From the IMG/VR virus record IMGVR_UViG_3300012007_000009, positions 96,791 through 160,790 of that record: a DNA stretch of 64,000 nucleotides; one strand, 5' to 3'. Positions 3,001-59,293 of this stretch are shown one piece after another. Numbering within the stretch: the stretch's first letter is position 1; every line of letters begins with the position of its first letter. Both the position numbers and the translations under genes were made by a program. The notes below the pieces were generated by a model that worked only from the letters and a program-made list of their open reading frames with translations, was not told the DNA's origin and searched no databases. The stretch is from a virus (taxonomy: Duplodnaviria; Caudoviricetes).

Positions 3001-5244
3001 GACACGGTATATGTGTTCGCCGTTTTCCTCGTTGACGGAAACTACCCGGCCCTGGGTCTTCGCGTAAATGAGTTCGCCGTCGTTCGTTACGGTCCCCTCG
3101 GCACCGCCGCTCAGGCGAAGCCTACCCTTCGACTCTTGATTTATCGGGGACAATGGGAGTACCATCTCCGCCTTCAGGTCGTGGGTCACCGGCATGTTGT
3201 ATGCACCTTCCTTGATATTGAATATGCTACGCTTCACGTACTTGATTGTATCATCCATGACCGTGGGAAGCTGCTGTTGATACTTCTCGGAACCAGTATG
3301 AACCAGTATGTACCTGCCCACCTTATCTTTTAGAGTAGACAGCAAACTGGTGTCATTGATGGTATCTATCCAGGTATTCCTGAGCATCACGGCATTGGTT
3401 GGGTCGGGGCTGCCAGCTACATGGGCAAAGTACCTCTCTATCGTGTCGATAATATCAACATAGTCTATGTCGACTGAATGGTCTATGATATACTGAACAT
3501 CGTCAGAGTCGTCCGACTCGGAGTTGGATTCCTTGGTAAACCATGGCATCTTCGGAATATCGCTACCGCTTGCCGCAATAATTGCGTATGTAAGCATCGG
3601 CACGCTCAATGCATACATGCTGCCCAGATTCTTGTCGTTGGTGCTTGGTACAGTCACGCGCACCGAGAACAGAGGAATGGATACTTTCGGTAATATCATG
3701 GCGTTGGTAACATCGGTACTCGACGGGTCGAGCAACGTAATATACTCATCTGCCACGATACCATCGGATTCCTTGGGAGAACCGGCGTCGCCAACAATCC
3801 GGTCGGCTATATCCATGGGAGGAGTTGCCCTGTTGCGCTTGGCCGCAGCATCCGTCTTGAACTCATCAGTTTTTATGCCAATGTCATCGGCTGCATCCGA
3901 CGGGTTGGCCAGGAGGCCGTTTTCCAGATTATCCTCGACATCGTTCGGGTTGTATTCCTCGGCAATCAAGCCCACTATAACGGCAACAGCGCGATAGAAG
4001 TTGGCCGTACCGGGAGCTATCAACGCACCGAGTTTCCTCACCGAGGTACTTATCTTGTTTTTATGAAGAGCTATCTTCCTGGATAGCTGGTCCGCTGCCG
4101 GGTTTTCCCCATTGCTGGCATTATCGTTTATCAAGGCATGGATTTCGGGTGCCCTCCATTGTGTAAGGGGCGTCTTCAGTGCAACCGGCGCGCGGAGAAC
4201 CGGGCTACCCGCGGAATGCGTATCGATTCGCTCGTTCCAGCCAAACGGTGCATCTGCGAAAGAAACTAGCTTTTCCAGGCCAGCATCATCGTCCATCCCT
4301 TCAAGCAAGCCCTCTACATAGGATTTGAGCGTCTGCTCCCCAGCATCGCCCTGGCCGGCGGATTCCGACTGCTGTACCTTTGCATTTCGGCACATCACAA
4401 GCATGGCGCCTAGCTGGTATATATCGCGGTCCGACTTTAATTCACCTTTGAACGCATCCTGCACCGCCGAAACAGTCTGACCGCACAGCACCTTGTCCAG
4501 GTCAACTAGCATCTTCTGGACGTCAGAATCCATCATGATTTCCCTGAACTTCTTAACGAAGCTGAATACCGATTCACCGAGCTCGGCACCCTTGCTATGC
4601 TGTTCTTCGCCACCATTCTTCACCAGGAAATAGAACCAGCGTTCGATAACCCGCAGGTCTTCCCATTTGTCTTCCCCGACGACATCACGCTTTAGCCCGA
4701 ACAGGCTATCATAATCTATTGCACTTTCAAAATCATCAACTTGACGCAACATGGCGGCATCACCGCTATGGAGTGCACGCGTACTGTTGATTTGGGCTTT
4801 AGTAGTGTAGGATGCGCCCTCGTTGACCTTTTTCTTCAGAGCATCCATTTCACTGATGAACTTCTGGGTGGCGGCCGTCGAGGTACCCTCGGTTTCCCCG
4901 ACACCCATGAATCCGGCACCCCCGGAGAAAGCCAGTACGCCAGCCCGGACCTTGTTTACCAGGTCAATCGTGTCCCTGCCGGCATACGACGATATGATAG
5001 TGTCGTACGTCTCGGAAGCACCGGGTGTTTTTGCCGCTTTAGTCGAAGCGAAATAGAAGTCCTTTACCTCGGGGTGGACGAATGATACTACGTAAAACAA
5101 GTTTGACATCCAGGCGTTCGGCGCTTGCGCCATTCGTCGGGCAATTTTCCGTATTACGTCATTGGCGTTAATGAAGTCGCGAGTAATTTCCTTCATTGCG
5201 GCGGAATCGCCCTCGAACCTGGCTTCAGTAAGAATTTTGTTCAT
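1..5244 (-). CDS. Very large hypothetical late protein (>1748 aa, runs off window start); candidate head-internal/virion protein
   Basis: Manual translation from ATG at 5244 (MNKILTEARFEGDSAAMKEITRDF...) stays open to position 1; absent from the ORF track because no stop lies in the window; plus-strand ORFs here are antisense shadows; TATAAACT on minus strand at 5279-5286; N-terminal ILTE|A motif. Confidence 0.85.
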   Translation of the reverse strand, partial: MNKILTEARFEGDSAAMKEITRDFINANDVIRKIARRMAQAPNAWMSNLFYVVSFVHPEVKDFYFASTKAAKTPGASETYDTIISSYAGRDTIDLVNKVRAGVLAFSGGAGFMGVGETEGTSTAATQKFISEMDALKKKVNEGASYTTKAQINSTRALHSGDAAMLRQVDDFESAIDYDSLFGLKRDVVGEDKWEDLRVIERWFYFLVKNGGEEQHSKGAELGESVFSFVKKFREIMMDSDVQKMLVDLDKVLCGQTVSAVQDAFKGELKSDRDIYQLGAMLVMCRNAKVQQSESAGQGDAGEQTLKSYVEGLLEGMDDDAGLEKLVSFADAPFGWNERIDTHSAGSPVLRAPVALKTPLTQWRAPEIHALINDNASNGENPAADQLSRKIALHKNKISTSVRKLGALIAPGTANFYRAVAVIVGLIAEEYNPNDVEDNLENGLLANPSDAADDIGIKTDEFKTDAAAKRNRATPPMDIADRIVGDAGSPKESDGIVADEYITLLDPSSTDVTNAMILPKVSIPLFSVRVTVPSTNDKNLGSMYALSVPMLTYAIIAASGSDIPKMPWFTKESNSESDDSDDVQYIIDHSVDIDYVDIIDTIERYFAHVAGSPDPTNAVMLRNTWIDTINDTSLLSTLKDKVGRYILVHTGSEKYQQQLPTVMDDTIKYVKRSIFNIKEGAYNMPVTHDLKAEMVLPLSPINQESKGRLRLSGGAEGTVTNDGELIYAKTQGRVVSVNEENGEHIYRVKFGRNSGLAAGEFTDSNMADWMPKGLTQMPDSKSKSPQYALWVGVNFVSAWSDEGYRNTFRRPENMIGISNDTYMNSLANSERTLDATENMQQFAKILHTTSAPAIDAVLQAGEAINRIYDRNLYDVETLLALTQTKGIEQVSTLKNALTCNQIAAKKPREAAADILNGILDSFFATKLKKNDQFYSDVSSLGALRKLNSMCADRSGSKLLTPQSILHAATQLLDVINSPFTMAEGADGAVEFASTGVEYNTDEYFDDHGLYTEYKNAVDELSASVSEASTPKAIMSFKKLENLYAQAVSEDFKADESYGRNGKMSLDGNISMNRSAVVSNKSLDALSKCIETVMPALEKSPEIMKQPFCDVLTAIDYAAKVPDEISQYRDAVRDYNANSAEAEPYRVSSGEVDGVSVDDLVQPDALGERDDHTGDVLTNSIDYDALREFDLTNDSADTYEGVTSSTMLGLIKCGPGMGSSSGKFDITAGISPAELSRVAAALDSAHETAVTFGTEGVRGKNIAIRKDVNRRVRILDDAMNSFYNFMTSTVPLEKRDILQEVDSVGNMFATKVGDCGDPTVEDMLDRMLAEFNQLKADVASQQKNADENPELNPDLVELEMASTVSTGIANIVLAIESYANTEHKAGNVSGLELYGGDSARLAGSDDANTSAAERLAMVGARNPGKETDDTVNQTSKSALDKTIREKFRDSTDAMLRGNERFSKTLSAIYERLGKGYTIGYEGALIPFDDLVYKSSTKHGNSYETLYSGEANTALGAVLNLAIVEDEIDNSSDNHTYRRLGNILNNLVGTGVQTGIEVPKYLLQGLSLEDDSDTRSPIDMSTTTWAVFNDNGSAQASDRRDYAHFEEAVPKFAGLSDIGGAIGVSLDDSDTPEGVAGKIRESIISKKLAGSAALHELSNRDAGHDSKIFTDTVNDFEETMKVSARSCTKSAGLLFVPLSVLYGCIDDSLLNTAMYQVIERASMRLRGKAIDSASTNILRGVYGEKYGTLP

Positions 5245-9896: not shown

Positions 9897-10607
9897 ATGA
9901 GCATATACGTAGTAGGCGACACCAAGAAGATGTTCCCCGAACTCGACGAGGGCAGGGAGAAATTTCTCACAGATATGCCCCATGAAGGGGAAAACATAGA
10001 CCGGCTGAACAGGTGGTACTGCGAACTGACAGGATTGTACCATCTATGGAAGAACTCAGATTCATTCTACGTCGGATTGGAACATTACAGAAGGTTCTTC
10101 GAGTCTATAAAGAGTCCAAAACAGCGCATGAAGGTGGACGAAGCCCAGGAAATACTGGAAAAATGCGACATGATTGTCACAGAATATGACCATGGTCCAA
10201 GATATACGGCGCTCCAGTGGTTCAAGGACTCGAAATTTCAGGACGGGAGCAGCTACATACTCTACCTGGACAAGTTCATCGATGTCCTTGACGACAAGGA
10301 CAAGGAAGGATTCAAGGAATACCTCGGGAGGCACCGGCTGGTACAGTGCAACATGTTCATAGGGAAACGCCCTGTAATGGATAGGTGGTGCAAGTTCATC
10401 TTCAGCGTACTGTCCAGGTACGACAAGTTATGCCCGCCGTCGCAGGCGCACGGGCGACTTCAGGGGTACTTCGCCGAGCACATATTCGGATACTGGCTGG
10501 AAAAGGAATCGGTGCCACTGTTCATGGCACCGAAAGTCGAAATGGAATACGTGGAAAGGAACGGGGTGTCCCCAGCCAGAGTAGGCTACTCTACCTCACG
10601 AGCTTGA
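9897..10607 (+). CDS. DUF4422-like glycosyltransferase-related protein
   Basis: YCELTGLYHLWKN, VGLEHYRRFF, CNMFI, RLQGYFAEHIF motifs typical of DUF4422 polysaccharide-synthesis proteins. Confidence 0.75.
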   Translation: MSIYVVGDTKKMFPELDEGREKFLTDMPHEGENIDRLNRWYCELTGLYHLWKNSDSFYVGLEHYRRFFESIKSPKQRMKVDEAQEILEKCDMIVTEYDHGPRYTALQWFKDSKFQDGSSYILYLDKFIDVLDDKDKEGFKEYLGRHRLVQCNMFIGKRPVMDRWCKFIFSVLSRYDKLCPPSQAHGRLQGYFAEHIFGYWLEKESVPLFMAPKVEMEYVERNGVSPARVGYSTSRA

Positions 10608-13600
10608 TTGCGAGCATGTCACCATCTTCGATATCCTCAGCATCGGTGTCGATGACGTTATTGTCAACCGAGTACCCGCACAGGTCACCGTCATCATCGA
10701 CACACCAGGCATAGCATACATATTCCGAGTTAGGCGACATTGACCCGTCTACGTCGGCCTTGCCGGTAGGACTGAACCCGAGCTGCTTGGAAGCGATTGC
10801 TCCGGTATCCTGTCCCAGGTTATTGAGTTCTGTCACCGTAGGAAGGCGCCAACCGGTTGAGCCGAGCTGGGCCATGATGGCTTCGGCATCCTCCATGCTG
10901 TACAGCATCACGTTCCTGGATGATTTCACCCCGGTTGCCCCGTCATAATACCCGGTCATCCACAGCAACCCGTTCGCCTCGTGGTATTCCACTTTCTTCC
11001 CGAGCTCGGCACTGGCCATCGAGCCAGCATTTGCCGAGAATTCGCCACCCCTGCTGAAATACGGGGCCAGCATCTGCTTTACCCGCTCGGCCTCCCCGGA
11101 AGGCAGATTCTCGATAACGGAATTGATTTTTATCTCATGTGCCCTAACGAATTGCGTAGTGAACTCATCCCAACCGCCCATGGCGGCAAGCCGCAGAAGC
11201 AATTCCAGTCCTTCTGGAGTAGTACTCATGTCCCGTACAGTTTCCGGGGTGAAACACTTTTTGCAAACCTCATGGGCGATATTACCCGGCAACATGTTGA
11301 TACAAGACAATAGAACCATAGGCTTGTCCTTCAGAAGCTTTTCGATATCTTCAGTGGATATTACGGCAGGGTCATCTTTGGAAAGGCTCTTATCATATTT
11401 AGCTGATATATCAAACAATGCCTTAGTCACCCTGTCTCCATGCAAGCTCAAGGATTTCCACTCAAAGTCGTCGACGCTCAGCACCAGATGTTGACCGGCT
11501 AAAATAGTCGCCACGACATCATTGAATGAGTTGGACTCGTAATACTCCTTTCCATAATGAGCCAATAGCTCCCACAATTCGTATGCTATGATGCATCGTG
11601 CTAGGACATCGTTCCGCATGGCCATCTTCTTTGAACCAGCCCCATTATCCACCAACGTTTGCTCATTGCAGCTAATTATCCCACCTCGCTTGCTATCCAG
11701 GAATATTTCCCTAGCAAGTCCCGAATCGGATTCATACAGGGACATATAACTGTCAAGCACTTGTTTTATGTATTCACCAACATAGTGAGTATTGTCACTC
11801 ACCCTCGACGTACTAAAAGAAAAATTTCGTTTTAATGGCTTTATGTATGTCCTGAAATACGTTGTCAAGTCATCTGTCACCAACCCATTAATCAGCATAG
11901 AATGCCTTAATGCATCAAACCTCCAGCCACCCGACTGTGGTTCATTTAACTTCAGGAAGGTCGACAATATCCGCTTTCCTAATGGGGAATTGCTCTCAAC
12001 TTCCTTGACAATGGAGCGACCAAGACACAGGTTGAGGAATAGCCTTAATGCATATTCGGTATTATTCGGGTAAGCAGTCAAAAATTCGCGTATTCTCCTG
12101 AGCAGCATGTTACCGGAGACCGAATCACGGTATTTGTTGATATCGTTCTCGTTGTTGTCCGGAACAATGTTACCATATAATTCAGAAGAAAATACCCTGA
12201 AACCAGGCACAACACTCCCGAATCTGAGCAAGCACCGCTTGGCTGGGCCATTATCAATAGCATGGAGGAGTGTTTGCTGCACTCTGGGCGTCATGAATTT
12301 CTTTATATCCGAGAACAAGGCATCCCGTGACGCGGCATTCATGGAATTGGACCTCATTAAGCCATCGAAATAATTCATCAAGCGCAAACAATTATCTATC
12401 GCTCTGGTTCCAGAATCATTTAATGCATATTCAACAGCATCTTCGGATAACGGTATATATTGACCGGAAATGCCTATAGAAACACTCAACGCATCCATTA
12501 ATGCATTGATTCCACGTACTCGGAATATCGCCACCTGTACATTGGGTTCACGTAGCATTTTCGGTGAAAATGTATTGCTGAGGCTGTAGGCATTATCTGC
12601 TATTTCGGGCATTTTCATGAAGTCAGCTACCCGGATGGTGGCATGTCCCGGTGTCCCGGTCAAAGCTTGGATTAGGCCATTGGGGTCATCGAAGGGTCTT
12701 AATATAGACAGTCCGATTATGTAATCAAATTCACCTGGATAGCCGGTGGATATTCCATATTTTTTGGCAATACTCATAATTTCAGGGTCATGTACAATGA
12801 CCTTATTCTCCTTGACTGCCATCTCGACCCACTCGCTCAGGTCGTCGGAATCAACCAAGCCACGGTCGACACATGCAGCAAGAAATTGCAGTTCATTAAA
12901 TCGCCCGAAATACTCAGTACCGCTATAGATTTCATTCCATAAATTAGAAATAAACGTGTCCGGTCTCGACATACTCTTCTTCAGAATACGAACCCTATCA
13001 TCCCAAGTAAGCTTGAACTGTAACTTCGACAAGTCGTCATTGCTTGGTGCGTCTTGCCATAGGCCTAAGCAGAAATCCGCTGTCAGGAAGTTGACAAAAT
13101 CTTCGGCAACCCTGTGACTTATTATTTGGGGGAACATAAAGACAATATCTTGAATGCGGTATGCGCCTTCATCTTCCATCAGGTCCAGTCTCATTATACT
13201 TACCCCGGAACCAGGAACTAGATAGGCTTGTATGCGGTCATTTTCTTCCTTTACCCATTCGGTGCCATCCTCGTTTCTCAGCATCATTTGCATGCCTGCA
13301 GCTTCCCACGCCATTCCTCCTTTGCTATTTTTAACCGCGGTATCTGCGATATCAGATGTTGTAAAATTTTCCGTATCCGCCAATATCGTTTTTTCAAAGC
13401 GGTTGTTGTTTTTTGTCAGTTTCTCTATAAGGTCGTGTTCATTGAACAAAGACTGTATTTCATCGGCAAGAGCAACTCGGTCTATTTTATTCAACCTGGC
13501 GGTAAAGCTCTCGTTATCTGAACATGAGGACAAGTCTTTCAATATGGCCAATTTCAGTGCATTCTTTAGATTCTCTTCAACATTTCTGAAATTTGCGCTG

Positions 13601-13950
13601 TTCTTTACGTCCTGATACACCCATACAGGTTCACCACCATCATCCCTATAACGTAGGCCAAGTTCATCCATCGCCATATCCATGGAAGAATTTACCAGCA
13701 TATCGACCTGCATAAACCTCGGGTCGCTATTCAACTTGCGTGCTATTGATGTGGTAGTGCTGCTCCCTTCACAATCCGTCGTATCTATGCCGAGAAACCT
13801 TGCCGCATCATCGTACCTAAATGGCACCGGGCGTACCGAATTCCCGCTATTTCCCTCGAACAACACCCGGTATGCGCTTTCCACCAGGGTCATAATCCCG
13901 ATATCAATACCGCTCGATACCAATTCCTTGTAGTCTGAATTCGAAAACAT
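10591..13950 (-). CDS. Large late protein (~1119 aa) with C-terminal Fib_succ_major/DUF1566-like domain
   Basis: ORF 10591..13959, likelier ATG at 13950; C-terminus GLLWM...LYSMEDA...GWRLPTVTELNNL...GFSPTG...YAW...LAIKLVR; TATAAACT on minus strand at 13983-13990. Confidence 0.75.
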   Translation of the reverse strand: MFSNSDYKELVSSGIDIGIMTLVESAYRVLFEGNSGNSVRPVPFRYDDAARFLGIDTTDCEGSSTTTSIARKLNSDPRFMQVDMLVNSSMDMAMDELGLRYRDDGGEPVWVYQDVKNSANFRNVEENLKNALKLAILKDLSSCSDNESFTARLNKIDRVALADEIQSLFNEHDLIEKLTKNNNRFEKTILADTENFTTSDIADTAVKNSKGGMAWEAAGMQMMLRNEDGTEWVKEENDRIQAYLVPGSGVSIMRLDLMEDEGAYRIQDIVFMFPQIISHRVAEDFVNFLTADFCLGLWQDAPSNDDLSKLQFKLTWDDRVRILKKSMSRPDTFISNLWNEIYSGTEYFGRFNELQFLAACVDRGLVDSDDLSEWVEMAVKENKVIVHDPEIMSIAKKYGISTGYPGEFDYIIGLSILRPFDDPNGLIQALTGTPGHATIRVADFMKMPEIADNAYSLSNTFSPKMLREPNVQVAIFRVRGINALMDALSVSIGISGQYIPLSEDAVEYALNDSGTRAIDNCLRLMNYFDGLMRSNSMNAASRDALFSDIKKFMTPRVQQTLLHAIDNGPAKRCLLRFGSVVPGFRVFSSELYGNIVPDNNENDINKYRDSVSGNMLLRRIREFLTAYPNNTEYALRLFLNLCLGRSIVKEVESNSPLGKRILSTFLKLNEPQSGGWRFDALRHSMLINGLVTDDLTTYFRTYIKPLKRNFSFSTSRVSDNTHYVGEYIKQVLDSYMSLYESDSGLAREIFLDSKRGGIISCNEQTLVDNGAGSKKMAMRNDVLARCIIAYELWELLAHYGKEYYESNSFNDVVATILAGQHLVLSVDDFEWKSLSLHGDRVTKALFDISAKYDKSLSKDDPAVISTEDIEKLLKDKPMVLLSCINMLPGNIAHEVCKKCFTPETVRDMSTTPEGLELLLRLAAMGGWDEFTTQFVRAHEIKINSVIENLPSGEAERVKQMLAPYFSRGGEFSANAGSMASAELGKKVEYHEANGLLWMTGYYDGATGVKSSRNVMLYSMEDAEAIMAQLGSTGWRLPTVTELNNLGQDTGAIASKQLGFSPTGKADVDGSMSPNSEYVCYAWCVDDDGDLCGYSVDNNVIDTDAEDIEDGDMLAIKLVR

Positions 13951-13982
13951 CGGCAACACCGTACAATTGTGTGATTAACCAC

Positions 13983-14020
13983 AGTTTATACCTTCAGGGC
14001 ATATCCTTGGTATATAAACT
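13983..14020. promoter_or_regulatory. Divergent putative late promoters (AGTTTATA...TATAAACT)
   Basis: Inverted octamer pair between the divergent genes starting at 13950(-) and 14053(+). Confidence 0.7.
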
Positions 14021-20200: not shown

Positions 20201-20253
20201 AAAATCTACCTCGTATTGGTATGCTTTACGCCAAGTTTATATCATGTCCGTTT

Positions 20254-21768
20254 TTATGCGCTTGCGGCAGGCTCGTACACCCCGAGCATCTCCAGTTCGA
20301 CATCGCGGTCGAACTCCATCTCGTCCCCGGTCTTCCAGGCCATCCCGAACTCCTCCGACGTCATGGTCGGGACGCCCACCTTCCCCAGCTCGTCCTCCAC
20401 CAGCTCCCTGACCCGGTCGGCAAGCCCGGCCTCCACGATAATCTCGTCGTGCACCGTGCAGTACGGGCACCCGACTTCCCGGGTAATCCGCGGTATGGCC
20501 CTGTCGAACACGAAGCTGCTCTCGACCCGCTGCATCTCCCGGGCGAGCGCCGCGTAATTCCCCGCCTTCATCCGCTCGATGGCGAGCAGCATGCACGGGA
20601 AGTGCTCGGACCACACCCTACGCACCGCGCCCTTCATCGGGTCGCCGCCCTCCGTGAACACCGGCCCGAACAGGGTGACGAAGAACGCGTGCTTCGCCTC
20701 TTCCCTGCCGACCTCGCGGTCGAGGTCGAAGTCCTGGGACATCTCCGACGCGAAGAACTCGTAGAGCCGGCCTTCCCTGACGAGCCCCTCGTACCTCCCG
20801 CATTCCTCCAGGTACGCCCCGCGGTCGCGTATCTCGGCCCTCGCCCTCAGCTCCCTCAGCGACGGCGACTCGGTCAGGTCCAGCGCGGCGCACTCGTCGG
20901 CCAGGCTCCGCATTATCGTTCCCAGGAAGGCCCCCTGGCTGGACTTGATGTCCACGCCGGCGGTCGGCTTCCCGTCGCAGTACAGGCACTCGGCCCGTAC
21001 CTCCTTCTTGAGCTGTGTCACGTTTGTGTGTATTCGCCCGAACCTGTCCTTCTTCACGAACAGCGCCCCGGGGTCCTCGTTCACGGAGTTGAACCTGTCG
21101 ACCTTCGCCAATTCGCGGCGCTTCCGCTTGGCGGTCATGGACTTGTCCGCGACAAGCCTGTCCAGCACCTTGACCGCCCGCTTCCTGTCCAGGGAGAAAT
21201 GGGACAGGCCGTCGTGGCAGGCGCCCACCCTCGGGTCCAGCATCTGCCTGGCCTTCACGTCGGCCGCGCACAGCGCGAGCCTCTTCAGGAACGGCCTGGA
21301 CTTGACGGGGATTCCCCTCGTCCTCCCGTACTTCCTGGTCTCGCCCGTGACGTCGCCCATCCGCCTCTCGCGGCTGTAGCAGTACTCCTTCCAGTAGTTC
21401 ACGTAGGGCCACCCGAACCAGAAGGCCTTGCTCCGCCCCCTGGTCTTGCCGTCACCCGGGAGGTACGAGAAGCTCCTCCCGATGAAGCCCCAGTTGATGA
21501 GGTCCTCGAGCACGGATTTGTAGTCGTTCCCTATGGCCGCGTGCAGGTAGACCGCCTGCAGGTTGCAGTGCCAGGTCCTGGTATCCACCTTGCCGCCCAG
21601 TATCCTGGCGTCGTGGTAGGCCCTCTTCAGCTGCCTTGCCACGAGGTGCAAGACAAAGAGGTACTTCTCCCTGCGCCTTGCGCACCCCGGGAACTCCTCA
21701 AGCTTCTGCCTGAGGGGGGCGAGGAAAACCTCGGGTACTCTCATCTTGTACTCGAACCTGGGTGTCAT
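20254..21768 (-). CDS. Family-A (PolA/T7-RNAP superfamily) polymerase-fold protein lacking exonuclease domains; candidate primase/replication initiator
   Basis: FGRIHT, motif A GVDIKSSQ, motif B REEAKHAFFVTLFG, motif C TVHDEIIV; ATG at 21768 lies 7 nt after a TTGACG-17-TAATTT promoter (the track start at 21894 is likely too long). Confidence 0.75.
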   Translation of the reverse strand: MTPRFEYKMRVPEVFLAPLRQKLEEFPGCARRREKYLFVLHLVARQLKRAYHDARILGGKVDTRTWHCNLQAVYLHAAIGNDYKSVLEDLINWGFIGRSFSYLPGDGKTRGRSKAFWFGWPYVNYWKEYCYSRERRMGDVTGETRKYGRTRGIPVKSRPFLKRLALCAADVKARQMLDPRVGACHDGLSHFSLDRKRAVKVLDRLVADKSMTAKRKRRELAKVDRFNSVNEDPGALFVKKDRFGRIHTNVTQLKKEVRAECLYCDGKPTAGVDIKSSQGAFLGTIMRSLADECAALDLTESPSLRELRARAEIRDRGAYLEECGRYEGLVREGRLYEFFASEMSQDFDLDREVGREEAKHAFFVTLFGPVFTEGGDPMKGAVRRVWSEHFPCMLLAIERMKAGNYAALAREMQRVESSFVFDRAIPRITREVGCPYCTVHDEIIVEAGLADRVRELVEDELGKVGVPTMTSEEFGMAWKTGDEMEFDRDVELEMLGVYEPAASA

Positions 21769-21874
21769 CGGTCCAAAATTATTCAAAATCCGCCATTCCG
21801 TCAAGGAGTTTATCCGGGTTTCGCCACCCCTTCCCGGGATTCCCCCGTCTTCCCCCGGGCCCCTACGGGGTCCA

Positions 21875-22011
21875 CGCTCCGCCAGGTCACACAAGTCCTA
21901 TAGATATGTTTAACGTTTTGAACCCGGTTTCCCGGAAAACCCGGTGGTGGAGGGAGGACCATGAGGGTCGCTCCGCCCAGTTACCTACAAGTCCTATAGA
22001 TATGTTTAACG
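21875..22011. repeat. Two direct repeats: identical 25-bp core ACAAGTCCTATAGATATGTTTAACG (21891-21915, 21987-22011), each preceded by CGCTCCGCC
   Basis: Read directly; 96-bp period; intergenic between divergent genes. Confidence 0.92.
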
Positions 22012-22049
22012 AATCGGACAGGTTTCCCGGGGTTTTCCGGGAATTCCCG

Positions 22050-22078
22050 TTGACTTCCCGGGGGAATCTTGCTATATT
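22050..22078 (+). promoter_or_regulatory. sigma70-type early promoter TTGACT-17-TATATT with extended -10
   Basis: Consensus spacing; ATG at 22085 is 6 nt after the -10. Confidence 0.7.
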
Positions 22079-22084
22079 CTCGGT

Positions 22085-22528
22085 ATGGATTCTACAGATT
22101 ACAAGAAGCTCAGCGCGGCCAGGCTGGTGCTGTGTCCCGCGACGGACGTTTCCGCCGGGGTCACCTCCGGTTCCATGGGCTACCTGCTGAACACGAACAT
22201 GCGTGGCGGTGTCGAAATGGCCAGGGACGGCGAGGCGCCGGAGCTGGATGGCGACGCGGTCGAGTCCGGGAAGTTCCTGGACGCCCTGGACCGGGCCGTC
22301 AGGTCCTATCTCGACGACTGCGTCAGGCTGCTCTATCTCAAGAAATCATCCAACGCCTTCGCCGAGACTGGCTTCAAGTTCATGCCGCAGCACCCGTACA
22401 GGGTGGTACTCTGGACTGGCAAGACGGACGGCGGGTACGAGTTCTCGTTCATGCCGCTGAGGGATGCGGGGAAGGTATCTTCCGACACCGTGTCTCCCGG
22501 TGCTTACCGGTGCACCCAGGCCGTGTAG
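22085..22528 (+). CDS. Hypothetical protein, 147 aa
   Basis: ORF directly after the promoter, same codon bias as neighbours. Confidence 0.7.
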   Translation: MDSTDYKKLSAARLVLCPATDVSAGVTSGSMGYLLNTNMRGGVEMARDGEAPELDGDAVESGKFLDALDRAVRSYLDDCVRLLYLKKSSNAFAETGFKFMPQHPYRVVLWTGKTDGGYEFSFMPLRDAGKVSSDTVSPGAYRCTQAV

Positions 22529-22540: not shown

Positions 22541-24397
22541 TTGCGTATGGAACAGCAGTTCGGGGTAACGGTCACATTCGACAACTATGACGGCGTGCTC
22601 GCCAAGATGCACGTTACCGGGGAGAATCCCAACGCGAACCGGGAGGTCCTCCGCTATACCCTGGCAACGCTGACGTACTACGACAAGTCGAGGAAGTACA
22701 CCTGGGCCGCCAAGCACGGCTACGACGACTGCCTGGTCAAGTTCTTCGACGGGAGGAACCGGACGCTGCCCATCGGTCTCATCCCGAGGCTGTCGCACTA
22801 CCTGCGCGACGCCTTCCAGGGCCAGGTGTCCGTGAAGATAACCAGGGCGATACGGGAGATGTTCACTCCCCCGTTCGGGCCGGTGCCGATAGAGACCGTG
22901 CGCGAGTTCGAGAAGACGCTCAACATGTACGACCGAGGGAAGTTCCTGGAGAAGTCCGCGGAGAATCCCGCCCTGCAGAAGGAGGACTTCTCGCTGAAGA
23001 TGTTCGAGCACCAGGAGAAGATTGTGCTCGAGGCGCTGAACAGGCGCAGGGTCTCCATTCTCGCATGCACCAGCTCCGGCAAGAGCATGTCCATGATGGT
23101 GATAGCCCGATACCTGATGGAGCGGGAGAACAAGAAGGTGCTCGTCATAGTTCCCAACGCGGCGCTGGTGAAGCAGCTGTTCCGCAACTTCCGTGACGAC
23201 TACGGCTGGGAGGAGGCGGGAGACTACTGCACGCAGATTTACGGCGGGTCAGCCGACAAGATTTCCAAGAAGAAGCTGGAGGAGCTGAAGCGCCTGTCCA
23301 TAGGCGAGGAGGCTACCCTCAAGCAGATTACCATATCGACCTGGCAGTCGCTCCGCCTGAAGGACGACTCGTACTTCAAGGTGTTTACCGCGGTGCTGGT
23401 GGACGAGGCGCATTCGGCGAAGGGCGAGGAGCTGCGCAACATCCTGGCGAAGTGCGTCAACGCCAACAACTTCAAGGTCGGGTTCTCCGGGACGCTCCCG
23501 GATGCCGAACTGGCGAACGATAACGTCTCCAACCACATCGATGCCGGGTACATCGAGGGCGGCCTCGGCCCGAAGCTGGACGTTGTCCGGCTGAAGGAGC
23601 TGATTGCCAAGGGGATACTCACGCCGCTGGAGGTGAAGGCAATATTCGTCCCGTACCCGATGCCGCTCCGGCCGGCCATCTGTGCCGACAAGACCCGGTA
23701 CGAGGATGAGCGGGCCATCGTGTGCGAGAACAGTTCCCGCAAGGACGTGGTCGACATGCTGTTCACGGGGGGCAGGATTACCGGCGAGCAGAACACCGTC
23801 ATCCTATTCAACTACAAGGAACACTTGCACGAGTTCTGCGACTTCATGAAGGAGAAGCACCCGGGATACACCTACCATGTCGTCGAGGGCGATGTCGGAA
23901 TCGACGACCGGGACGACATAAGCCTTGCCATGGAGAAGTGTACCGGGAACGTGCTGATAGCGACCTACGGCTGCATGAAGCAGGGCGTCAACATCAAGCT
24001 GCTGCACAACCTGATACTGGCGGAACCGATGAAATCCGCATACACCATCGTGCAGTCGCTCGGCCGAATCGTCCGCAGGCACCCGGACAAGAAACTGGCG
24101 ACGACGTACGACATTGTGGACGATGCCGCCTACTATACGAACCCGCGCAACGGGGGACCGGGAACGCGCAAGTACAACTACATGATGAAGCACTACTACG
24201 AACGGGTCAAGTACTACGCCAACGAGGAGCTCCCCATAGAGGAGATTCATCTCGACGGGCTGTACGAGGCCCAGGTGACCCCCGACGACATCAAGAAGCG
24301 CAGGGAAAAGGCAGCGGCCACGGCCGCCAAGCAGCAGGCCAAGGGCCAGGGGAGGACATCCCGGGCAACCTGGCAGAGAACAATGTTCACACGATAG
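22541..24397 (+). CDS. uvsW: UvsW-like SF2 DNA helicase
   Basis: HQ...CTSSGKS Walker A, VIVP, VDEAH, GFSGT, QSLGRIVR, YDIVDD. Confidence 0.9.
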   Translation: MRMEQQFGVTVTFDNYDGVLAKMHVTGENPNANREVLRYTLATLTYYDKSRKYTWAAKHGYDDCLVKFFDGRNRTLPIGLIPRLSHYLRDAFQGQVSVKITRAIREMFTPPFGPVPIETVREFEKTLNMYDRGKFLEKSAENPALQKEDFSLKMFEHQEKIVLEALNRRRVSILACTSSGKSMSMMVIARYLMERENKKVLVIVPNAALVKQLFRNFRDDYGWEEAGDYCTQIYGGSADKISKKKLEELKRLSIGEEATLKQITISTWQSLRLKDDSYFKVFTAVLVDEAHSAKGEELRNILAKCVNANNFKVGFSGTLPDAELANDNVSNHIDAGYIEGGLGPKLDVVRLKELIAKGILTPLEVKAIFVPYPMPLRPAICADKTRYEDERAIVCENSSRKDVVDMLFTGGRITGEQNTVILFNYKEHLHEFCDFMKEKHPGYTYHVVEGDVGIDDRDDISLAMEKCTGNVLIATYGCMKQGVNIKLLHNLILAEPMKSAYTIVQSLGRIVRRHPDKKLATTYDIVDDAAYYTNPRNGGPGTRKYNYMMKHYYERVKYYANEELPIEEIHLDGLYEAQVTPDDIKKRREKAAATAAKQQAKGQGRTSRATWQRTMFTR

Positions 24398-24899: not shown

Positions 24900-27800
24900 A
24901 TGAAAGACTTTGCCCGCATAATCATGGAAACTCACCTCGACGACAACTTCGCCAGGGTGCTGTACGAATCCCTCGCCATATTCGAGGCTACGAACATCAA
25001 CAAGGCATTCCTCCTGAAGGAGGCCGGGTCCCCGGAAGCGCTGAAGGCGGCCAAGGACAGGGTGAACAATGCATGGGAATCCGCCCACATGGATGGCGTC
25101 ATCAAGGGGGGCAATCTCCTACAGAAACTGTTCAACTTCCTTTTCCTGATGGAAATCCGCAAGCCGGGGTTCACCAACGAGGAAATGCTTCATAAGATTC
25201 ATGACCTGGCAATACACGGGTCCCTCGAACAGAGATTCCTCTCCAAAGTCACATCGGACACGGTCCCGGATGAGGCCAGCGCGATACTCGACGATGCCAG
25301 TGTCGGGGCGGAGCAGGCGGCGAAGCCGTATCCGTCACTGACCAAGGAAGAGGAGAAGGTGTGGAACCGCGTCAAGGTGTATCACGAGTTCCCCGACGGG
25401 TTCAAGTGGGTGTATGCGGTGGACGCCGGCGGCAGGATTGCCCCGAACATGCCGTCTTCAATCACCAGCAAGACCATGCACCATTGCGGGAACTCCCCGC
25501 GTGCCGGTTCCGACGACCAGTACTGGGAGCTTCGCGATGCCAGCGGCAAGGCATACCTGACCGTAATATTGACACCCACAGGGAAGATAGAGGAGTCAAA
25601 ATCCTGGGGAAACCAGGAAAACAAGTACCGCAGGCAGATACAGCCTTACGTGAAGTGGTTCCTGAAGGACCAGAAGGTAACCGGCGTTGGGCACAGGTAC
25701 GACTATGGCTATGCCCCGCAGATGAACTTCGGCGTCAAGGATTTTATCGGCGATGACCCGGAATTTATCGATTACGTGATTGAGAACAAGTCCGAACTCC
25801 TGGGAAATACCGAATCCAGGATTCTGTTCTGGCAGGATGCAATCAAGGAAGGCGTCCTTACTACGGAAGACCTGAAGAATGCATACTTCGAGCGGGCATC
25901 GGTACGCGAGCTGATGGAGAAGGTGCCACAACTGAAGGAATACGCCGAGCGGGCCAGGTTCCACCTATCGGCGGACCGGTTCTCCAGCGAGGACTCGATT
26001 TTCGGGCGGAACCCGTTTGTGGTCATTTGCGCGGCGTGTTCCGGAAACCCGTTCACGCCGGAGGAAATAGATAGGCTAGTTAGTGAAGGCACCCTGTCAC
26101 TCGAGGAATTTGCCAACTATGATGTCCACCTTCTCACTCCCGAGATACAGCGAGTTTTCGTCAAGCACGACGCAAGAAATTTCGACACCCTATGTAGGAT
26201 AGGCGAACAGGTTGCGGCCTTCAAAGTTTCCCCCGAATTGTGGATGAGCCTTCTACCCGACAATGACGAGCCATTATCGTCGGATATGCTTGGCAGGTCA
26301 ATGAGGCTGCTGGACTACGTGTATTCAGCCAATCCGCCCAGCAAGGTAAAGACTGAAGCCGAGGCCATGATAAGCAACAGCAAGTTCATTGATATGGCTG
26401 CTGACATTGTACGGGGTGGCGCACCCGAAACGAGGGAAAAGTATGGGTGGGGGGCGCCGCGGCCGTTGACACTGTTGGAGAAACTTTCGGTTGTTTTCGA
26501 GAGGTTCCCTGAAATGGCCATCCCGGAAAAACTGATGGATTGCACGTGCGACTTGATACAAGATACACACAGGTCAACTGACCCGAGAGAAGAGCTTTCG
26601 AACAACATGAGTATCCTGCGCGATGTGGAACGGATAGGACAACCGAGAAACGAGCGTCTCCTTGCTCTATATACGGATGACCGCATTGCCGAGAAGTTCT
26701 TTGGCACATCGGATATAAGCGGGAGGGAACGCATCGACTATGCCGATATGAAGGAGTGCTTGTATACCCTAATAAAAGTATTCGGGAAGACCCGGATTTT
26801 GAACATCGCGTCCAGGATTCCCGATTTTGAAATGCTGCAGGGGGCTTTATTTGTCCTGACCGGTTCCGCCAACCAAATAACGGAATCCATGCTCGGTATG
26901 GTAACTGAGTGCATTGAAGAGTGGGATTTGCATGAATGGTTGTCCTTAGCGACCTTGCCGAAAGCCATGATGGTAAGCGACCTGGTGGTAAACTTTCCAA
27001 GTACACTGAACGCACTTGACTGGGACAAGCCGGACACCTACAATGGTATATCTCAAGTAGCCAGCAAGATATGCTCACCCATATTTGCCGAAACTGGATT
27101 GAGCGCGGATAAGGTTAACGTATTCATTGACCGGGTATGCAACGAGGCAATTGACCACATCGATGTATCGTACATTGGATGGTTGATGGGGCGGTATTCG
27201 GGCGGGTTGAATAAGACACTCATGACCTTAATGACAAGTTATTCGGTAAAGCCGGATGGAGCAGAACGTCTATATCGGGCGATGGGCGACTTGATGCTGG
27301 GGAATTTCGGGCAGACCGAGATGGGGTATGATACGTCATGGTTCAGTATACCGGGTGCTTGGAGCATATTCACTATCGGATACGACGAATGGGAGGAGTA
27401 TTACGGGCGATATGGCTTCAGGTTCGTCAACGCGTATGTTTTGAGCGCACCGTCCGACCGGTTCGTTGAGGACGACTTCATACTGAACTTCGTATGCAAG
27501 AAACTGCAGGATAATGTACCCGAGACTGATATAAGGGCATTTACCCATATAATGGATGGCTACGAAAACCGAGCAAAGAAAGCAAAACTGGGTGCAGTCA
27601 TATCGGATGCGGTCGTCGACGGGAACTTCGATGCGACAGAAACCGTATTCATGCATCTGTACAAGGACCGGTTTATCAACGCCAAGGCATATCGTACCTA
27701 CCTCTCGAGGCGTGACGACCAGGGGGCTATGGAGGTAAAGGACCTCTCTATGGCCGCCGGGGTTGTGCAGTCCATGCGAAGCATCGCAAAGCTTCATACC

Positions 27801-28217
27801 CTTCCGCAGTTGGTCGCGTCGACTGTGCGGTACCTGGTGGGCAGGTTGTATGACAACATGGGTGACGGAAGCGGAATGTACATGAAAGTTGATAGCAACT
27901 GCATTGACGATTGTGATGTGCTGGAACAGCTGATTGACCAGTTGACCCGAAAGGCGACAGTCGGTTACATTCCGGCCGCAATAATGGCTCTGTACAGTGA
28001 AGGCCTGGTCGATAAGATGCGGGTCTTCGAACAGGCGAACCTGCAGGCATGTGACGTTCCCGGGAAACCCAAGGCACCGCTGAAATGCATAGTCAGCCAG
28101 AAGCTCAAATCGATGGTCGGCATGCTTGAGCGTGTCAAGGACCGGGCACAGGATGCCGCTGCCAAGATTGTCGATAAAAAGCCGAGGAAGCCGCGCAAGG
28201 CGGCAGCTCGGGCATAG
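24900..28217 (+). CDS. Large late protein, 1105 aa, with PcfJ-like segment (tentative)
   Basis: MHHCGN...YWELRDASGKAYLTV; N-terminal LYE|S and IFE|A; basic C-terminal tail. Confidence 0.8.
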   Translation: MKDFARIIMETHLDDNFARVLYESLAIFEATNINKAFLLKEAGSPEALKAAKDRVNNAWESAHMDGVIKGGNLLQKLFNFLFLMEIRKPGFTNEEMLHKIHDLAIHGSLEQRFLSKVTSDTVPDEASAILDDASVGAEQAAKPYPSLTKEEEKVWNRVKVYHEFPDGFKWVYAVDAGGRIAPNMPSSITSKTMHHCGNSPRAGSDDQYWELRDASGKAYLTVILTPTGKIEESKSWGNQENKYRRQIQPYVKWFLKDQKVTGVGHRYDYGYAPQMNFGVKDFIGDDPEFIDYVIENKSELLGNTESRILFWQDAIKEGVLTTEDLKNAYFERASVRELMEKVPQLKEYAERARFHLSADRFSSEDSIFGRNPFVVICAACSGNPFTPEEIDRLVSEGTLSLEEFANYDVHLLTPEIQRVFVKHDARNFDTLCRIGEQVAAFKVSPELWMSLLPDNDEPLSSDMLGRSMRLLDYVYSANPPSKVKTEAEAMISNSKFIDMAADIVRGGAPETREKYGWGAPRPLTLLEKLSVVFERFPEMAIPEKLMDCTCDLIQDTHRSTDPREELSNNMSILRDVERIGQPRNERLLALYTDDRIAEKFFGTSDISGRERIDYADMKECLYTLIKVFGKTRILNIASRIPDFEMLQGALFVLTGSANQITESMLGMVTECIEEWDLHEWLSLATLPKAMMVSDLVVNFPSTLNALDWDKPDTYNGISQVASKICSPIFAETGLSADKVNVFIDRVCNEAIDHIDVSYIGWLMGRYSGGLNKTLMTLMTSYSVKPDGAERLYRAMGDLMLGNFGQTEMGYDTSWFSIPGAWSIFTIGYDEWEEYYGRYGFRFVNAYVLSAPSDRFVEDDFILNFVCKKLQDNVPETDIRAFTHIMDGYENRAKKAKLGAVISDAVVDGNFDATETVFMHLYKDRFINAKAYRTYLSRRDDQGAMEVKDLSMAAGVVQSMRSIAKLHTLPQLVASTVRYLVGRLYDNMGDGSGMYMKVDSNCIDDCDVLEQLIDQLTRKATVGYIPAAIMALYSEGLVDKMRVFEQANLQACDVPGKPKAPLKCIVSQKLKSMVGMLERVKDRAQDAAAKIVDKKPRKPRKAAARA

Positions 28218-34851: not shown

Positions 34852-37800
34852 ATGGCCGAAGGGTTCGATTTCGAGGAATTTTACATAAACGAGAAGGTCA
34901 AGACCGAGGCGGCAATAGACCGCAGCGGTGTCATTGTACAGAACCCTACCGAATCGGCTGAAATTGTGACAAATAACGTGCTGTACTATGCAGGCACTGT
35001 CCAGTATAGGACCACTGCCGGTTCTGCCTGGGCCGAAGTGACTGACGGGTGCCGCATATGTATCGAGGATGTTTCCGCTTCTTCCCCCAATTACTATTTC
35101 GTCAGGCCGTGGCATTTGCTTGGCGAGGCTGCCGACTTGGGCATCGCTACGGCATGGAAACCCGGGGCGAGCCGGGAAACCGTGTTTGAGCCGGATGCCG
35201 ATGCGGATGATATGCGGTATCACTTCATAGATGACAATAACGGCACGCATTACAGCATACATTCTTTCCGTGCCTACATTTTTCCGCGTCACACCGCCGA
35301 GGCTAACCAGAATATAAGGCCGTCTTCGAACATAGAGTTCGGGATGAACCAGTACCCCATTGACCAGAACGTAGTGCGTTATGCTGCGCTGATGAAGGTG
35401 CTGTATGGTGCCCTCGGACTATATGGGGGCCGCTGGAAAAGCCTGAAGTGGCTTTCCAACGTTTGGGACAAGAAGCAGGCCGATGCCATAAAGGACAATG
35501 CCGTCATATCGTACGACAGGTTCAAGCGGGCGATGGACAACCTTGCCGACGTATGCAAGGACAACGATGTCGGCTTTAGCGTGACATACTATGACCAGAG
35601 CTTTGCACGGGAGGTGACCGCGGAGGATGCAACTCCGGATGACTACAGGATAAACCGGTCCGCCGCGAAGAAAAAACATAGACAGTACATCGCTGCGCTG
35701 GCAGCGGCCGACATCACCAAGACCGACATGGGCAAGTTCACGTCGTTCAGTGACGCGTACGGTTCTGAGCTCGCCAGTTTCATCAGTCGCACCGGACTGG
35801 TGGATAATATCGGTAGTGCATACCACAACGAGACCGCCCTGCTTCCTCCGATAAAGACCGCAATCAAGGCGTATTTCTACCAGGCTGACGAACTCGAGGA
35901 CGAGTTCTGTAATTTGTTCCATAAGGTGCTGTCGGAGATTTCCAAGGTACCTATCGTATGGAAGTTCGTTTCCGCAACGACGAAGAATACCATCAACAAT
36001 GCAAAGCGGAACTATATATCGCAGCCAAGCGGCTCGACTCGTATGGCGTTTGACCTTGATGTATACCAGGCCATATTGCTGAATGAATGGGGAAAGTCAT
36101 ATTGGCAGCAGCATGCGGTTCCCCGGGTAATACAGGTAGGTGGATGGACTACGGGAAGCGGGGCCGGCAATACCGATATTGTCGGTCCAAACGCGGGGCA
36201 GGGTAACTGGAACATAGGATGGTGGTCGGCCGACACCGACGCGAATACCCCATTGTACATGTCGTTCAGCGGTGCATCCAGCAAGAGTGTACGGGACAAG
36301 GAATATGTATCGATGAGCGCCCAAGAGGTCCTGAATGAGCTCATAGACAGATACAATGCTGTCGTGGCCGCAGTAACCAAGCAGGCTTCCGCAGAGGATG
36401 ACCAACAGTATATCAGCAATGAAGTTCGCTCGGAGATTACCGAACATGTAATAAGCCATCCGGAGACTTTCGGGAGCTGGGCATTTGGGGAGGGCGGATT
36501 CCTGAATAAGCCAGGGGTGGGACAGTTCGGCTGGATATTGACGAACGTTAGCTGCTGGATGAACTACGTCAGGCTGAATGGGCAGGTTACCAATTCGGAA
36601 GGCACCTACATAGACGCCGGGAAACTTGTTACTTATATGGTGAACAACTGGCCCGCAAATACGTTGTTCGATTTTGGACAGCTGTCCGCTGCGGGGATGG
36701 GCTTCGACCCGGTACTGTCCGGTACATATGACGTGATTGCCTGGGAAGAAGGAATGAACGAGAGTGACCGGGAGGCCAGTACAGGTTATAAGTTCGTCCC
36801 GAAGTATACCGAGGAGTGGCTAAACCTGTCCGAATTGCCGTTTGAGAGTTTTGGTACTGCATTGAAGATTGTCAACGCTATGCGGGATGCATACAAGGAG
36901 ATGTATCGAGCCGCGGTAGTCCAGGCAATGACAATAGGGGCGGCCAGCGCAGCCAAGGCGCTCGTCAAGCTCGATGATATCGAGGATGACTTGAATGATA
37001 TCCGGGACGTATGCAATAAGTTGACCTGGTATCAGCGTCTGGTTGACGAATCGCCGTTCATCAACCTATCCACCATACCGGATGCGGGTAACTCATTGAA
37101 TACATCGGCATTCCCGGCTCACTTGATGTTCCCCGTAAGCATGTACAAGAAAGTGAGGGTAAAGTACAAGCGTTGGGGACGTACCAGGCACAAGATGGTC
37201 AAGCGCTCAATCGGGGTTCGCTGGGCAGAAGTTACCTTTACCGACGCGGCAGTATTCGGCGAATATCCGGTCGTCGAGGAAGAAGCAGGGAATACGGTGA
37301 ACTATACCAGTACGTACGAGATTGACGGAAGCGACGAGGCCCCGGTCCTGTTGCTGGACCGGTCCCTGCCGGACGAGGTGGTTGAAGCCGGACGTGGCCT
37401 GGTTCGGTTTGCGAACGAAAGCGTATCGTTCACCGTGGAAAGCGATGTCAGGCTGGCACTCGACGGTGTCGTATCGGCAAATCCCGGGAGCATCCTCTCG
37501 TTGAAGATTCCTCTCGCCCCGTCACAGCACGACGGTTCCAGGGAACCCGTCAACATACTTTATAAGATGCCGGGATTGCCGTATGATTCCGAAATCAGGA
37601 AGCGCGCGTTCGTTGAGTTTGGGTCGCTAAGCCAGGCACCTGGATTCGAGGTGGTAAGGAACCAGGGGCCCATCGACGACATGGTACCCGGCTGGAGAAT
37701 ATTCCATGCATCATCGGATAGCATAGCCGACCTGCGCGACGGTCTAGGCATTCACGATAAGGTCGCCATGCTTCTAAGCATATTGAAGCACGAATTTGGC

Positions 37801-47991: not shown

Positions 47992-48000
47992 TATTAACAG

Positions 48001-48030
48001 GAAAATCCCGGGAGATTCCCGGGATTTTTC
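48001..48030 (+). terminator. Terminator after tmRNA
   Basis: AAAATCCCGGGA/TCCCGGGATTTT stem. Confidence 0.75.
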
Positions 48031-48231
48031 TTGTTTTAGCGGTCCAATTTTAATGAAAAAGTATCATTTTGGACTCAAAACGTATTTCAATGCACGTTTT
48101 TGGCACTTTTTCAAAGGTCATTTTTCACTGTTTATAAACAGTACGTCAGAAGTCTAAGGGAGTTTAATTCTCCCCCTGGCGGTAGGGTTACCGTCTAGGT
48201 AAGACGGAAAACCCTAAAAAGGAAAAGAAAA

Positions 48232-49725: not shown

Positions 49726-49758
49726 TCAACCCAGTCTTGACTAGGACTCAAACTTATT

Positions 49759-49788
49759 AGGAGGTCGGTGCAAGCCGACCTCCTTTTG
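49759..49788 (+). terminator. Terminator after gp23
   Basis: AGGAGGTCGG/CCGACCTCCT stem plus TTT. Confidence 0.8.
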
Positions 49789-49829
49789 TGTATGAAAAAT
49801 AATGTAAGATTTATTTTACAATAACGATA

Positions 49830-49858
49830 TTGACCTTTATTCATAATTTATGTATATT
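49830..49858 (+). promoter_or_regulatory. sigma70-type promoter TTGACC-17-TATATT
   Basis: Consensus spacing; precedes a 13-codon uORF and the endonuclease. Confidence 0.65.
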
Positions 49859-49902
49859 AAGAATATGAATACTATAGCCATTGGGTGGCAAAGGATAATC
49901 AT

Positions 49903-58609: not shown

Positions 58610-59089
58610 ATGGGAATCGAGCTTGGCGCAGTTGGCATGTACGGGGGTCTTGGAAGCAATTTCGACACCCATCCCGACTATAGGCACGACATGTTCTACG
58701 TTGTCCAGAATGCCGCACGCGGCATCGGTGACATCAGGAGCGGGAAGGCTTCCGACTTCCTCGACCGCGCATACGAGCAGAACTGGTGGCATACCGAGGA
58801 CAAGCTCGCCGAGCTCCAGGACAAGTTCCTCGAGGACGACATGATTAACAACACTCCGGGCCGCGGCCACAGGAACTATCGCCGAATGGAGTATGACATC
58901 GAGAAGAACCCGAACGGGAAGGGTGCAGCGGAGGACAGGGAGCTGGCCGAGGAACGCAAGGTTCTCACGGTAGACAAGCTGAAGGAACTGGCCGAACAGC
59001 ACCAGTGGGCGATGTGCACTACCGCTTCGGCTTACGGGGCGAAGCCTATCACGCAGAAGGACTATACCGACCAGATTAAGCTTCGGTAA
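58610..59089 (+). CDS. Hypothetical late protein, 159 aa
   Basis: TATAAACT at 58573-58580; phage-like codon usage. Confidence 0.75.
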   Translation: MGIELGAVGMYGGLGSNFDTHPDYRHDMFYVVQNAARGIGDIRSGKASDFLDRAYEQNWWHTEDKLAELQDKFLEDDMINNTPGRGHRNYRRMEYDIEKNPNGKGAAEDRELAEERKVLTVDKLKELAEQHQWAMCTTASAYGAKPITQKDYTDQIKLR

Positions 59090-59112
59090 ATAGCAAAAAA
59101 TGAAACTATAGA

Positions 59113-59148: not shown

Positions 59149-59157
59149 ATACCAAAA

Positions 59158-59253: not shown

Positions 59254-59293
59254 TATATGCCGGTGAAACACAATAAGCATAAGGAGCTTAACT

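Follow-up and report, generated by a model that had tools for sequence, protein, structure and literature searches.

To our knowledge, replication origins and their initiators are unknown for almost all jumbo phages. Where such a phage starts to replicate its chromosome, and which protein makes the start, is the question raised by a short intergenic region of the viral record IMGVR_UViG_3300012007_000009, which separates the gene for an exonuclease-less, TV-Pol-like family-A polymerase (P0001) from a divergent operon with a gene for a UvsW-like helicase. The stretch analyzed here (64,000 nucleotides, referred to as the window) is the last 64 kb of this 160,790-bp IMG/VR contig (G000). As the contig reaches this length at a CheckV completeness of only about 44%, it belongs to a jumbo phage. 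Our analysis indicates that the intergenic region (window positions 21769–22084) is probably an origin of bidirectional replication. For the fuller reading, in which the region is the origin and P0001 its initiator or primase, acting on a motif repeated there, we see even chances.

Composition skew at the locus

The cumulative GC skew of G000 has its minimum at about 21–23 kb of the window, where the initial annotation had expected an inflection (20–22 kb). Gene orientation also changes at this minimum, from predominantly minus to predominantly plus strand, and the skew of each gene was therefore regressed on its strand and on its side of the locus. A strand-independent effect of the side was found in G000 (0.029, t 3.6) and in two relatives, G005 (0.072, t 13.1) and G001 (0.038, t 9.1), and the side effect was larger at third codon positions. 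The plus-strand genes of G000 have a mean skew of +0.009 to the left of the locus and +0.069 to the right. Thus, the direction of the trend noted earlier by hand counting was right, but the left side is about zero and does not show the excess of C over G that had been described.

A scan of IMG/VR for relatives of the polymerase gene gave 35 loci on contigs of 5.7 to 422 kb, many of them longer than 200 kb; 33 of these loci contain enough sequence upstream of the polymerase gene to be informative. The skew breakpoint test covered five genomes: G000 and the four near-complete relatives G001 (IMGVR_UViG_3300028914_000001, a circular assembly of 422 kb), G003, G004, and G005 (IMGVR_UViG_3300031993_000006, 260 kb, 91% complete). 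Every gene boundary was tried as a breakpoint while gene strand was controlled for. In all five genomes the best breakpoint lay no more than about 3 kb from the locus (Table 1).

The leading strand is usually G-rich, so that a skew minimum marks an origin; by this rule, the genes that diverge from the skew-switch locus are co-oriented with the replication forks. The skew minimum and maximum of G001 are separated by about 46% of the circle, in keeping with bidirectional replication. The mid-genome position of the locus in G001 was also considered as a product of real genome ends; this was rejected, the terminal repeat being a 110-bp assembly overlap.

The intergenic region and its conserved motif

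The region contains a 25-mer (ACAAGTCCTATAGATATGTTTAACG) in exactly two copies, 96 bp apart, which was matched by none of 100 shuffles. The two identical repeats reported at this spacing by the initial annotation are therefore real, and they are unique: no third copy was found in the 160,790-bp contig with up to 7 mismatches allowed. The copies represent the perfectly kept cores of a diverged tandem duplication of about 96 bp, in which TTCCCGG-type palindromes are found as well.

Repeats were also sought beside homologues of the polymerase gene, and the upstream regions of the relatives do carry significant direct repeats, of 16–25 bp. They have in common the motif AAACAT-N4-WTRG, read in the direction of the polymerase gene and contained in a block of about 20 nt; in the window it takes the form CGTTAAACATATCTATAGGAC. 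All motif copies, without exception, are oriented towards the polymerase gene. Uniqueness was assessed with a position weight matrix (PWM) in the four whole genomes carrying the motif. The copies upstream of the polymerase gene scored 22–35 bits, and the next-best sites genome-wide scored 12.6 (G000), 17.4 (G005), 13.3 (G003) and 14.7 bits (G004). A role as a general phage promoter was considered and rejected, because the motif is confined to one site per genome, with only one or two copies. The clade of the G001 type has one related element, TGAGAACATATAGTG, which is unique in its genome and follows an A/T run. In some clades the motif ends in CTATAGG, as in T7-type promoters.

The copies are 63, 96, 99, 126–186 or 822 bp apart in different phages, the largest distance being found where a gene has been inserted between them. 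This variable spacing, together with the inserted gene, makes cooperative binding to classical phased iterons unlikely. The region shares with iteron origins the presence of unique direct repeats at a switch of strand composition; several copies at a fixed, helically phased spacing are not seen, as there are one or two copies and their spacing varies. With its fixed orientation, flexible spacing and AT-rich sequence, the motif resembles a promoter-type start site more than a phased iteron array. The inserted gene codes for about 227 aa (L010:5027–5710, L018:5046–5732, and L034), was seen in one sub-clade and leaves both motif copies intact; its likeness to endonuclease V was judged only by an N-terminal DxAYW-type sequence.

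According to the initial annotation, divergent sigma70 promoters bracket the repeats. The rightward promoter was called by the promoter scan; the leftward one, read by eye, was not called, but the relatives L148 and L149 retain its −35 block, GGATAAACTC(C)TTGAC. Neither divergent gene is preceded by a Shine–Dalgarno sequence, and the −10-like hexamers end 6–9 nt before the ATG (21766–21804 and 22050–22087), which suggests leaderless or near-leaderless mRNAs for both genes. The leaderless-type layout upstream of the polymerase gene is kept in relatives, including the distant G001 clade. The AT-rich motif copies alternate with GC-rich palindromic elements, which have counterparts (GGTTTCCGGG) in L149 and could be sites of a second, dimeric factor. 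A search of Rfam gave no match between positions 21500 and 22400 of the window.

Sequence and predicted structure of P0001

Translation, Pfam and the fold search agree with the earlier description of a protein of about 504 aa that has the three PolA motifs and lacks an exonuclease. The motifs are VDIKSSQ (D273–Q278), R355-x3-K359-x7-F367-G and H440-D441-E442. A plus-strand open reading frame (ORF) that overlaps the gene (20221–21903) has the codon-position GC pattern of an antisense shadow, and the minus frame is therefore the coding one. P0001 had no Pfam match at E ≤ 1 and no NCBIfam match; PF00476 (DNA_pol_A) found nothing in the whole contig, P0001 lying below the Pfam threshold. The sole profile match, to phrog_17 “DNA polymerase” of PHROGs, was marginal (E 0.004) and lay over motif C. 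Using phmmer against 1.84 billion representatives, we recovered 1658 relatives at E < 1e-3, mostly of 375–550 aa and none of them named. In 142 homologues, R245, D273, Y336, K359, Q413, E416, H440 and D441 are invariant, and R355 is invariant or nearly so. An hhalign comparison equates R355, K359, F363, F367, Q413 and H440-D441 with R754, K758, F762, Y766, Q849 and H881-D882 of Pol I; F367 also takes the position of Y639 in T7 RNA polymerase. The steric-gate region has no Glu. The initial annotation had placed a Gln at the position of the Pol I steric-gate Glu, and counting to D+5 does lead to Q278; the equivalence is not established, as alignment of the SQ dipeptides leads to A280.

An AlphaFold2 model built with the homologue alignment reached a pLDDT of 92.7 and a pTM of 0.88, and its top Foldseek matches were family-A DNA polymerases only (probability 1.0). 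In an exhaustive structural scan with VIA-align, the core (residues 174–478) aligned with the Klenow fragment at Z 15.5 (rmsd 3.6 Å, 256 residues) and with Pol theta, Pol nu, T7 DNA polymerase and the apicoplast polymerase at Z 13.4–14.6. The values were Z 13.8 (rmsd 8.6 Å) for yeast mitochondrial RNA polymerase, Z 11.3 (10.3 Å) for T7 RNA polymerase and Z 9.3 (5.0 Å) for N4 RNAPII, the last of which was also the best PDB sequence match of the family profile, at a weak E of 0.029. No exonuclease domain was detected by sequence (Pfam) or by fold (structural scan). The PolA fold proposed earlier is thus borne out, and P0001 is confirmed, at the level of the predicted structure, as a Pol I-like family-A polymerase with intact catalytic residues and without an exonuclease.

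Residues 10–160 matched only winged-helix proteins in VIA-align: Fur (Z 6.3), domains of ORC/Cdc6 (Z 5.0–5.8) and MarR, as well as the staphylococcal RepA “MDR initiator” (Z 5.6). A protein-atlas search with residues 1–172 returned unnamed clusters only, all below 0.9. The assignment of this domain as a winged-helix DNA-binding head should be taken as a lead, not as proof.

A domain of this kind bears on the question of whether the motif is regulatory. Its copies could be operators or activator sites for the divergent early promoters, possibly with autoregulation by the winged-helix domain, and the skew switch would then have another cause. A winged helix is a typical repressor domain, a conserved sigma70-like promoter lies downstream of both copies, and flexible spacing is common among regulator sites. 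Nevertheless, we regard this explanation as distinctly improbable: five genomes have their strand-independent skew breakpoint at this intergenic region, the copies share a single orientation whereas the sites of dimeric regulators are usually palindromic, and a regulator has no need of a polymerase active site that is invariant in 142 homologues.

Gene neighborhood and the replication gene set

The helicase encoded next door was named UvsW in the initial annotation, and its similarity to T4 UvsW leaves this name in place (Table 1). A homologue of it lies divergently upstream of the polymerase gene in 30 of the 33 informative loci, and the pairing is kept down to 33% polymerase identity. In most relatives, a gene of 147–206 aa stands between the helicase gene and the intergenic region; these small genes fall into three separate groups, with no detectable homology from one group to another.

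These phages also encode PolB and a DnaB-like helicase, SbcC-like and FEN-like nucleases and a dUTPase. A Toprim primase is probably present, as suggested by a sub-threshold sequence match at a syntenic position, and an AEP prim-pol was looked for in these phages and not found. With PolB, a DnaB-like helicase and a probable Toprim primase at hand, the family-A enzyme appears to be an extra, specialised polymerase.

The same gene set raises the possibility that the origin lies here but fires as in T4. A transcript made by the host RNA polymerase from a sigma70-type promoter would form an R-loop and prime PolB, and UvsW would resolve the R-loop; another factor would bind the motif, and the PolA-like enzyme would serve in gap filling, in primer removal together with FEN, or in lesion bypass. 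The divergent sigma70-like promoters that flank the region, the UvsW-like neighbor and a FEN/RNase H-like gene in the same operon all agree with this explanation, and the skew evidence is silent on which protein initiates. However, in L148 the helicase is not a neighbor, yet the motif still adjoins the polymerase gene; the motif thus goes with the polymerase and not with the helicase. Furthermore, a gap-filling polymerase would not need the extra N-terminal DNA-binding-like domain, and the distant relatives of P0001 are replicases of small mobile elements. Taking both sides together, we consider R-loop priming somewhat unlikely.

In L148 (L148:1–2763), which is 69% identical, the genes divergent from the polymerase gene encode proteins with the Fib_succ_major domain in place of the helicase operon. 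From this one might suspect that Fibrobacter-like or Bacteroidota-like bacteria of the gut or rumen serve as hosts.

Relationship to the TV-Pols

TV-Pols have been predicted to be primase-polymerases in a mobile-element context (Iyer, Abhiman and Aravind, 2008; PMC2579912). P0001 has the core features given there, namely the thumb coiled coil, the Arg hairpin, the two Asp residues, RxxxK and the absence of a nuclease domain. Its distant family members (22–26% identity) come from Planctomycetota and metagenomes, where they are found in small bacterial elements. P0042 and P0050 adjoin phage-type integrase genes, P0046 a resolvase gene and P0029 an IS110 transposase gene; P0053 lies in an island with resolvase, ArdC and transposases, the resolvase and a DDE transposase being 6–7 kb from the gene. 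A mobile-element context was therefore seen in all five distant members examined, and it matches that of the TV-Pol subset having an N-terminal domain. When run against Ma-LMM01, a Microcystis phage named as a host of a TV-Pol, the family profile gave no match, and membership therefore rests on features and context. On these grounds (core features, no nuclease, mobile-element relatives), the TV-Pol-like character proposed in the initial annotation can be retained. In the bacterial mobile elements (L147:5558–6001 and the loci of P0042 and P0029), a small ORF of 122–147 aa directly precedes the TV-Pol-like gene, which recalls the stand-alone N-terminal-domain genes of TV-Pols and the small partner of CcPol.

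This context suggests one more explanation, in which the gene and motif would be a selfish TV-Pol element resident in the phage, with the motif serving the element itself as origin or recombination site and not being the origin of the phage. Besides the distant relatives in integrative or transposable elements, it can draw on a report of TV-Pol elements inside a phage genome (PMC2579912). Against it, no integrase, resolvase or transposase gene lies beside the polymerase gene in any jumbo-phage locus, the helicase operon stays syntenic at identities as low as 33%, and the skew switch at the locus is genome-wide. Such an element is, in our opinion, very improbable here.

Proposed initiation mechanism

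If the even-chance reading given at the outset is correct, the intergenic region would be the bidirectional origin of the jumbo phage and the 504-aa protein its origin-specific initiator, an exonuclease-less family-A polymerase of the TV-Pol type. The N-terminal winged-helix-like domain would recognize the unique AT-rich motif, present here in two direct copies, and the polymerase core would start a primer de novo at this motif. The primer would be extended by the PolB replisome of the phage (PolB, DnaB-like helicase and Toprim primase), and the divergently encoded UvsW-like helicase may help to open or remodel the initiation intermediate. The role of the enzyme as initiator or primase, its binding to the motif, its priming there and the nucleotide used (RNA or DNA) are all inferred. 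One TV-Pol-group enzyme, CcPol-MP, has been shown to start DNA chains without a primer (PMC10061031).

A more specific version would make P0001 a promoter-specific de novo single-subunit polymerase, with a place between DNA polymerases of the Pol I type and RNA polymerases of the T7 type. Such an enzyme would recognize the oriented motif of about 20 bp in the way that T7 RNA polymerase recognizes a promoter, melt the AT-rich core and synthesize the origin primer, of RNA or DNA, that the T4-like PolB replisome would use. The CTATAGG ending of the motif in some clades keeps this version open, and we put it forward tentatively, as an unlikely one.

Several observations weigh against the assignment of an origin and of P0001 as its initiator. 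The contig that holds the window is just about 44% complete. LR756504, a very distant huge phage (636 kb, 26% GC), carries a family member that is not at the skew minimum, and skew there follows gene strand; for this reason, we claim the link to an origin for the UvsW-paired clade only. The motif copies are anywhere from 63 to 822 bp apart, those at 822 bp (L010, L018 and L034) having an endonuclease-V-like gene between them, and the most distant clade, that of the G001 type, has a single copy. The winged-helix assignment rests on Z values of 5–6. Finally, a sigma70 promoter lies downstream of both motif copies, so that the motif may have a purely regulatory role.

On the other side, the candidate origin is pinned by three independent lines in five genomes, namely a motif that is both conserved and unique, a conserved pair of divergent genes, and a skew switch that does not depend on gene strand. 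The candidate initiator can be expressed and assayed without phage culture. If it does prime at the motif, the idea of a TV-Pol/PolA-type primase would apply not only to small mobile elements but also to the chromosomes of large T4-like viruses, and the enzyme would be a natural intermediate in the evolution of single-subunit polymerases with promoter specificity. Should the promoter-specific version hold, the locus would represent a new class of phage origin, common to a large clade of uncultivated jumbo phages.

Features of the window

The features of the locus and the skew breakpoints are collected in Table 1. Elsewhere in the window, very large ORFs without a family match lie at 24900–28217 (1105 aa) and 34852–39363 (1503 aa), and a 2507-aa ORF at 1–5244 on the minus strand runs on upstream in the contig (genome positions 94514–102034). 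Low-GC islands (44–46%, vs. 55–60% elsewhere) are located at 10000–14000, 48000–51000 and 59000–61000. Some of them hold minus-strand genes within the plus-strand block, e.g., at 59778–61007, which suggests later insertions.

Table 1. Features of the candidate origin locus (window positions) and best skew breakpoints with the corresponding polymerase genes (positions in the genome named).
Feature	Position	Strand	Evidence or remark
Gene of exonuclease-less family-A (TV-Pol-like) polymerase P0001, 504 aa	20254–21768	−	Translation, motifs, homologues, AlphaFold2 model, PolA fold matches
Predicted polymerase core, residues ~174–478: thumb helices, R245 hairpin, palm D273 and D441, fingers R355/K359	20335–21249	−	Klenow fold match, invariant residues, hhalign
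N-terminal domain, residues ~1–170, winged-helix-like, putative sequence-specific DNA-binding head	21259–21768	−	Weak VIA-align matches
Putative sigma70-like promoter of polymerase gene	~21778–21804	−	Read by eye; ends ~9 nt before ATG
At least four GC-rich TTCCCGG/CCGGGAA-type palindromic elements	21831–22048		Repeat families D2, I1–I7
Proximal 25-bp motif copy, in polymerase-gene direction CGTTAAACATATCTATAGGACTTGT	21891–21915	−	Exact repeat, unique in contig, PWM 28.4 bits
Distal 25-bp motif copy	21987–22011	−	Exact repeat, unique in contig, PWM 26.2 bits
Sigma70-like promoter of rightward operon, TTGACT-17-TATATT, 10/12, TG-extended	22050–22078	+	Promoter scan; ends 6 nt before ATG at 22085
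147-aa protein without family match, first gene of helicase operon	22085–22528	+	Family searches negative
UvsW-like SF2 helicase, 618 aa, divergent from polymerase gene	22541–24397	+	T4 UvsW 2oca E 2e-43; ResIII, DEAD, Helicase_C domains
Best skew breakpoint, G000	118,538		At 5' end of polymerase gene (117,044–118,558)
Best skew breakpoint, G005	91,822		Inside intergenic region; polymerase gene 90,147–91,643
Best skew breakpoint, G001	210,900 (207,650 nearly tied)		Polymerase gene 207,823–209,232
Best skew breakpoint, G003	153,806		Polymerase gene 153,976–155,424
Best skew breakpoint, G004	86,916		Polymerase gene 87,032–88,366

Comparison with known replication systems

The replication gene set of these phages resembles that of T4 in its PolB, gp41-like helicase, UvsW, gp46/47-like nuclease and RNase H/FEN, and the candidate origin, like T4 oriF and oriG, adjoins promoters. 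However, T4 has several origins, whereas a single skew-defined site was found here, and we know of no family-A polymerase or dedicated initiator at the T4 origins.

At the primary origin of T7 and at mitochondrial origins, short promoter-like elements with a defined orientation are the start sites of a single-subunit polymerase of the PolA/T7-RNAP superfamily; in T7 there are two such elements in tandem, and the product primes the replicative polymerase. The motif described here is similar to T7-type promoters (CTATAGG) in some clades only, and the core of P0001 is structurally closer to DNA polymerases (Z 15.5) than to the T7 and mitochondrial RNA polymerases (Z 11–14, rmsd 8–10 Å).

In protein architecture and gene context, P0001 is close to the TV-Pol family, with which it shares a family-A core reduced to the minimum (thumb helices, Arg hairpin, two catalytic Asp residues and the RxxxK finger motif), the lack of a nuclease domain, an extra N-terminal domain, a length of 400–600 aa and linkage to a helicase gene; its distant relatives likewise adjoin resolvase, integrase or transposase genes. 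In contrast to that family, P0001 occurs in T4-like jumbo phages of 160–420 kb with a complete PolB replisome, has an SF2 UvsW-like helicase, not one of the D5 type, as its partner, and is encoded at the skew switch of the genome beside a conserved motif. Finally, in CcPol-MP, the PolA-SSB primase of SCCmec elements, an A-family domain acts as a primer-independent starter, a role that P0001 would share, and a helicase gene is likewise adjacent (PMC10061031), but in our phages the small gene lies across the intergenic region and not in the same operon.

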